Below are positions 40,700-40,747 of a stretch of 64,000 nt of DNA, in pieces. This DNA comes from Escherichia coli (GTDB lineage Bacteria > Pseudomonadota > Gammaproteobacteria > Enterobacterales > Enterobacteriaceae): assembly GCF_024298765.1 (NCBI RefSeq), contig NZ_CP101210.1. One strand, given 5' to 3'. The stretch's first letter is position 1. Each line of letters opens with the position of its first letter. The notes below the pieces were generated by a model. The model was not told where the DNA came from. It searched no databases and saw only the letters and a list, made by a program, of their open reading frames with translations. The position numbers were made by a program, and so were the translations under genes.

Positions 40700-40747
40700 T
40701 CAGGGGAAGGTAAAAAAGAATGCGAAGAAAAACGGTGTGTGTTTCAT
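40700..40747 (-). CDS. pheL: pheA leader peptide, [15 protein letters not shown]
   Basis: 15-codon Phe-rich ORF (7 Phe) directly upstream of the attenuator. Confidence 0.8.
   Translation of the reverse strand: [15 protein letters not shown]

Follow-up and report, generated by a model that had tools for sequence, protein, structure and literature searches.

The window, by which we mean the whole 64,000-nucleotide stretch of Escherichia coli DNA analyzed here (all positions refer to it), carries bamD, raiA, pheL-pheA, and the convergent tyrA-aroF in the standard E. coli gene order. The features of the pheL-pheA region are collected in Table 1. Translation of the reverse complement of the pheL interval yields 15 sense codons and a TGA stop, with the ATG at 40747-40745, an ACA (Thr) codon 4 at 40738-40736, and the 3′ codons TTC (40708-40706), CCC (40705-40703), and TGA (40702-40700); translation of the plus strand of the same interval produced nothing meaningful. 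Phe occupies positions 6, 7, 8, 10, 11, 12, and 14, forming an FFF-A-FFF-T-F pattern, and a Pro is present at position -10. Both the 15-codon leader with Thr at position 4 and the intact set of seven Phe codons proposed in the initial annotation, which gave no strand, are borne out by this minus-strand translation, in which all seven codons were counted. A Shine-Dalgarno sequence, AAGGA (40759-40755, minus strand), lies 7 nt 5′ of the ATG.

Several lines of evidence place this ORF in the Phe_leader family. A cmscan search matched RF01859 over model positions 1-125 of 125, untruncated, with 132.2 bits against a gathering score of 55 (E = 2.3e-24). The expected elements of such a leader were also found: a short Phe-rich ORF with its own start codon and Shine-Dalgarno sequence lies immediately 5′ of pheA, and an intrinsic terminator separates the leader ORF from the structural gene. 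The latter, a 386-aa ORF beginning 98 nt past the pheL stop codon, is annotated in identical E. coli records as pheA, encoding the bifunctional chorismate mutase/prephenate dehydratase. Given the full-length Rfam match and the pheA ORF downstream, the pheL ORF is not a chance ORF. Elsewhere in the neighborhood, the listed aroF ORF (37127-38266, plus strand, 379 aa) opens 23 codons 5′ of the likely real start, MQKDALNN...; the extra codons come from the longest-ORF rule and should not be taken as a feature. Rfam also returned a full-length match to the Ysr155_RyfD sRNA family (RF02768) at 45495-45633 on the plus strand (125.3 bits, gathering score 42).

Table 1. Features of the pheL-pheA region, with the evidence for each.
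Feature	Position	Strand	Evidence
pheA, regulated gene, 386 aa	39441..40601	minus	ORF list; annotation of identical matches
Intrinsic terminator (attenuator)	40621..40653	minus	Terminator scan; hairpin energy; consensus fold
Phe leader attenuator RNA	40623..40748	minus	Full-length RF01859 match, cmscan
Segment 2	40657..40697	minus	Folds with and without masked ribosome footprint on nascent transcript; consensus fold
pheL leader-peptide ORF	40700..40747	minus	Translation; pheL annotation (WP_001386991.1) of E. coli records with 100% identity
Segment 1, Phe-codon region, 5′ side of long hairpin	40704..40733	minus	MFE fold; 18-leader consensus fold, columns 16-45
Single-nucleotide difference from K-12	40737..40737	minus	Alignment with MG1655 and J53; translations
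Probable pheA promoter	40773..40802	minus	Read from sequence; K-12-identical

The region 5′ of the leader contains TTGACA (40802-40797) and TACTGT (40778-40773) separated by an 18-nt spacer, which we assigned by eye and by identity with K-12 as the probable pheA promoter. A sigma-70 consensus scan of 40400-41300 called no promoter because the -10 hexamer TACTGT matches the consensus at 3 of 6 positions, below the scan threshold.

Downstream of the leader ORF, the terminator stem is formed by AAGGCCTCCC and GGGGGGCCTT (40653-40629) and is followed by a T-run. The terminator scan counted 10 pairs in this stem, seven of them G-C, and the hairpin energy is -18.5 kcal/mol. The stem is kept in 18 species, with compensatory GC/AU changes at one pair in the consensus fold. 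In the predicted long hairpin, segment 1 (40733-40704) pairs with GGGAGG at 40697-40692 and with 40680-40657. In the predicted antiterminator, UGGGAGGC (40698-40691) pairs with GCCUCCCA (40650-40643), a sequence that the antiterminator has in common with the 5′ arm of the terminator. Of the 28 outgroup leaders described below, nearly all retain the three elements GGGAGGC, GCCUCCC, and GGGAGGC, allowing for small variations.

The interplay of these structures was modeled by masking a ribosome footprint over Phe codons 6-12 and truncating the nascent transcript ahead of the terminator's 3′ arm, the state that matters kinetically. With the footprint in place, the UGGGAGGC/GCCUCCCA antiterminator was predicted to form on the nascent transcript; in the ribosome-free case, segments 1 and 2 were predicted to form their hairpin instead, and the 5′ arm of the terminator was left free. 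When the footprint was masked on the full-length leader, the MFE structure was still the terminator and no switch to the antiterminator was seen, a result of the slightly greater stability of the terminator. An antiterminator that excludes the terminator and is favored by a ribosome on the regulatory codons was found, in silico only.

Attenuation at the K-12 leader has been described in the literature (PMC3082878), and the window's leader would be expected to work as follows. With ample phenylalanine, the translating ribosome would pass the seven Phe codons and reach the stop codon, and either the segment 1/2 hairpin or ribosome release would free GCCUCCC, so that the terminator hairpin and U-run could form and transcription would end before pheA. 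When Phe-tRNA is scarce, the ribosome would stall at the Phe codons and mask segment 1, and UGGGAGGC, located just past the stop codon, would pair with GCCUCCCA and occupy the 5′ arm of the terminator. The terminator would then be blocked, and RNA polymerase would continue into pheA.

We compared the region with K-12 over a 281-nt stretch that runs from the 3′ end of the raiA coding sequence into the start of pheA, and detected one mismatch against both MG1655 and the K-12 derivative J53. Base 40737 on the minus strand is C, making codon 4 ACA (Thr), whereas K-12 has T and hence ATA (Ile). The initial annotation had given Ile at this position for K-12 and had named a Thr there as the observation that would speak against it; translation of MG1655 b2598 gives Ile, and the claim stands. 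Everything else in the K-12 pheL-pheA attenuator (b2598; RF01859) is shared by the window, including the promoter region, Shine-Dalgarno sequence, seven Phe codons, UUC_CCC_UGA end, segment 1/2 hairpin, antiterminator, and terminator with its U-run; codon 4 is the sole difference. The earlier statement that the attenuator hairpin is intact was likewise upheld by alignment, terminator scan, and fold, all of which found the terminator hairpin and T-run present and identical to those of K-12. RefSeq holds both peptides, the Thr form as WP_001386991.1 ("pheA operon leader peptide PheL") and the Ile form as WP_010723158.1 ("phe operon leader peptide"). The window does not carry the latter, K-12 allele, which is recognized by Ile4 (ATA); its peptide is the same as WP_001386991.1 without any difference, and in most genomes the nucleotide sequence is the same too. 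The Thr form of pheL is therefore already known and annotated, and it is an ordinary feature.

To place the two alleles within the species, exact matches to a 70-nt query centered on codon 4 were counted in complete E. coli genomes. The window's allele was found in 3,300 of 5,421 complete genomes (61%) and the exact K-12 70-mer in 1,383 of 5,417 (25.5%), and approximately 738 genomes carried neither. All four genomes sampled from this last class encode Thr (ACA) and none encodes Ile; one has a synonymous CAC>CAT change in the His codon at position 3, and three have an A>G change in the 5′ UTR. Adding such Thr alleles with one other SNP would bring Thr4 to as much as approximately 74% of E. coli, an upper estimate extrapolated from the four sampled genomes. 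Because the two RefSeq product names differ, the Thr and Ile forms can be separated in match tables, and when 30 evenly spaced rows were sampled from the ranking of each allele search, 8 bore the Ile-form name. The Thr form was found in O157:H7, O111, strain B, HS, and ATCC 25922, among others. The Ile form extends beyond laboratory K-12 to isolates from chicken, duck, pig, soil, and humans, and the pheL nucleotide sequence of S. flexneri 2a is described as identical to that of K-12 (PMC3082878).

These counts also bear on the quality of the base call. A lone mismatch in a region otherwise identical to K-12 could be read as a sequencing or assembly error at 40737 in a K-12-like sequence. We rejected this explanation because at least 3,300 independent complete genomes share this base; moreover, the window has an IS4 between raiA and bamD that is absent from MG1655. 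The probability that the C at 40737 is an error is close to nil.

Further observations concern the 3′ end of raiA. In MG1655, the sRNA RaiZ (b4805), which is processed from the raiA 3′ end, is annotated at 2737381-2737542, and by correspondence with MG1655 its equivalent in the window is at 40804-40965 on the minus strand. The RaiZ terminator (40827-40808) is directly 5′ of the pheA -35 hexamer, and the window is identical to K-12 across the aligned part of this region (40805-40931). Certain other E. coli genomes have a phage integrase gene in place of raiA immediately 5′ of the pheA promoter. For example, positions 1-110 of NZ_CM125671.1 (equivalent to approximately 40825-40931 of the window) consist of unrelated DNA ending in a phage integrase gene, and in such genomes the unrelated DNA replaces the sequence 5′ of the raiA terminator and pheA -35 region. 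A second copy of the query sequence, incomplete, occurs in approximately 155 genomes, and two matches begin at query positions 43-50. These observations suggest that the raiA 3′ end (raiZ region) serves as a prophage attachment site in some E. coli. The integrase replacement upstream of pheA is absent from the window.

We next consider which of the two alleles is derived. Outgroups were scanned with one genome per species, using a back-translated peptide pattern in which only codon 4 was free; every other residue was forced to match, so the scan is no evidence for invariance elsewhere in the peptide. The pattern was found in 28 species outside E. coli, a set that does not include E. coli itself, E. 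fergusonii, or Salmonella. Thr4 is encoded in E. albertii (ACT), Escherichia sp. MOD1-EC7003, an unclassified Escherichia (ACA), Citrobacter amalonaticus (ACC), Pseudenterobacter timonensis (ACG), Huaxiibacter chinensis (ACA), and Enterobacteriaceae strain RIT714 (ACG). Most Pantoea and Erwinia and some Enterobacter have Leu4, and a few species have Val4 or Gln4. None of the 28 outgroup species has Ile4. Given the Thr in E. albertii, MOD1-EC7003, and Citrobacter and the lack of Ile in all 28 species, Thr4 is probably ancestral in Escherichia by parsimony, on a species set that is restricted because E. coli, E. fergusonii, and Salmonella were missed by the scan, and the Ile4 of K-12 is probably a derived minority allele. 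By parsimony, the K-12 ATA would have arisen from ACA via a single C>T transition. Thr4 had been presented at the outset as a departure from K-12; the difference is real, but the polarity that this wording implies has to be turned around, as Thr4 is the majority form and it is K-12 that probably carries the derived variant.

Taken together, we are highly confident that the window contains an ordinary pheL-pheA ribosome-mediated attenuator with the commonest, probably ancestral Thr4 (ACA) allele. Because the terminator, long hairpin, and antiterminator are those of K-12, normal attenuation in vivo, the same for both alleles, would be expected from this near-identity. The Thr/Ile difference itself is expected to be neutral for regulation, because codon 4 precedes every regulatory codon and falls in a stretch predicted to be unpaired. 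The ACA and ATA leaders fold into the same MFE structure with the same energy (-52.9 kcal/mol), leaving the polymorphic base unpaired, and the first 15 positions, which include codon 4, are unpaired in both the Rfam consensus and the 18-species consensus fold. Within the coding region, the 18-leader alignment shows its lowest conservation at codon 4.

The leader also belongs to a group of pheL genes defined by its 3′ end. In a survey of 53 pheL genes (Gurvich et al., 2011; PMC3082878), the enterobacterial group is described as invariant only in its AUG, its regulatory Phe codons, and its terminal UUC_CCC_UGA, with other positions varying. The window's coding sequence ends in this way, and it shares with the group the TTC_CCC_TGA end, Pro -10, and FFF-A-FFF-T-F pattern. 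On the strength of this shared end, Pro -10, and the Phe runs, the same high, apparently incidental +1 frameshifting at the stop codon would be expected here by analogy with the group. The frameshift constructs described for the group have the K-12 sequence, whereas the window has the Thr4 form; codon 4 corresponds to position -11, which is not singled out in the available text of the survey (PMC3082878).

One could nevertheless suppose that the Thr/Ile difference is functional, altering either the speed at which the leading ribosome arrives at the Phe codons or nascent-peptide effects at UUC_CCC_UGA and thereby shifting the basal read-through into pheA or the sensitivity of attenuation. Codon 4 is indeed the most variable leader position across species (T, I, L, V, and Q), but variability so high and patternless is what a neutral position looks like, and the base is unpaired, with an identical fold for both alleles, which also speaks against such an effect. 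Frameshift stimulation is ascribed mainly to the last three codons and Pro -10, and pheA expression is described as not influenced by frameshifting, in the survey (PMC3082878). Both alleles, furthermore, persist across thousands of natural isolates. We consider a functional role for codon 4 very unlikely.

The codon that probably replaced ACA offers a more specific version of the same idea. ATA is a rare codon in E. coli and is read by a minor tRNA, a general property that would favor some functional consequence of the Ile4 allele. A small kinetic effect of this rare codon in K-12-type leaders has only a slim chance of being real, and nothing in our data points that way. That the derived AUA acts as a functional variant, with the minor, lysidine-modified tRNA slowing the leading ribosome and slightly shifting basal read-through into pheA in approximately a quarter of E. 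coli, is slimmer still. If it were true, the window would show the unmodified, ancestral setting. The neutral reading, in which both alleles support ordinary attenuation, is the one we retain.

The initial annotation had valued Thr4 mainly as a lineage marker showing that the DNA is not from K-12. The window is indeed not K-12, but the marker is weak, as it excludes only the K-12-like quarter of E. coli. The IS4 between raiA and bamD (41440-42866) is a much better lineage marker than the pheL SNP, because 317 of 5,426 complete E. coli genomes share the insertion and MG1655 lacks it. The element is flanked by a 14-nt direct repeat, CAGCTCAAGGGCTG, at 41426-41439 and 42867-42880, and its terminal inverted repeats start with TAATGCCGATCAGTTAAG. 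Its transposase is split into overlapping ORFs at 42800-42477 and 42523-41453, and insG is labeled "frameshifted" in an identical record. In MG1655, raiA and bamD are separated by a 270-bp intergenic region only.

This strain should regulate phenylalanine biosynthesis in the standard way, and the codon 4 difference matters very little in itself. What it illustrates is that K-12 should not be equated with the typical E. coli: at codon 4 of pheL the reference holds a minority, probably derived allele, and "differs from K-12" should not be taken to mean "unusual."
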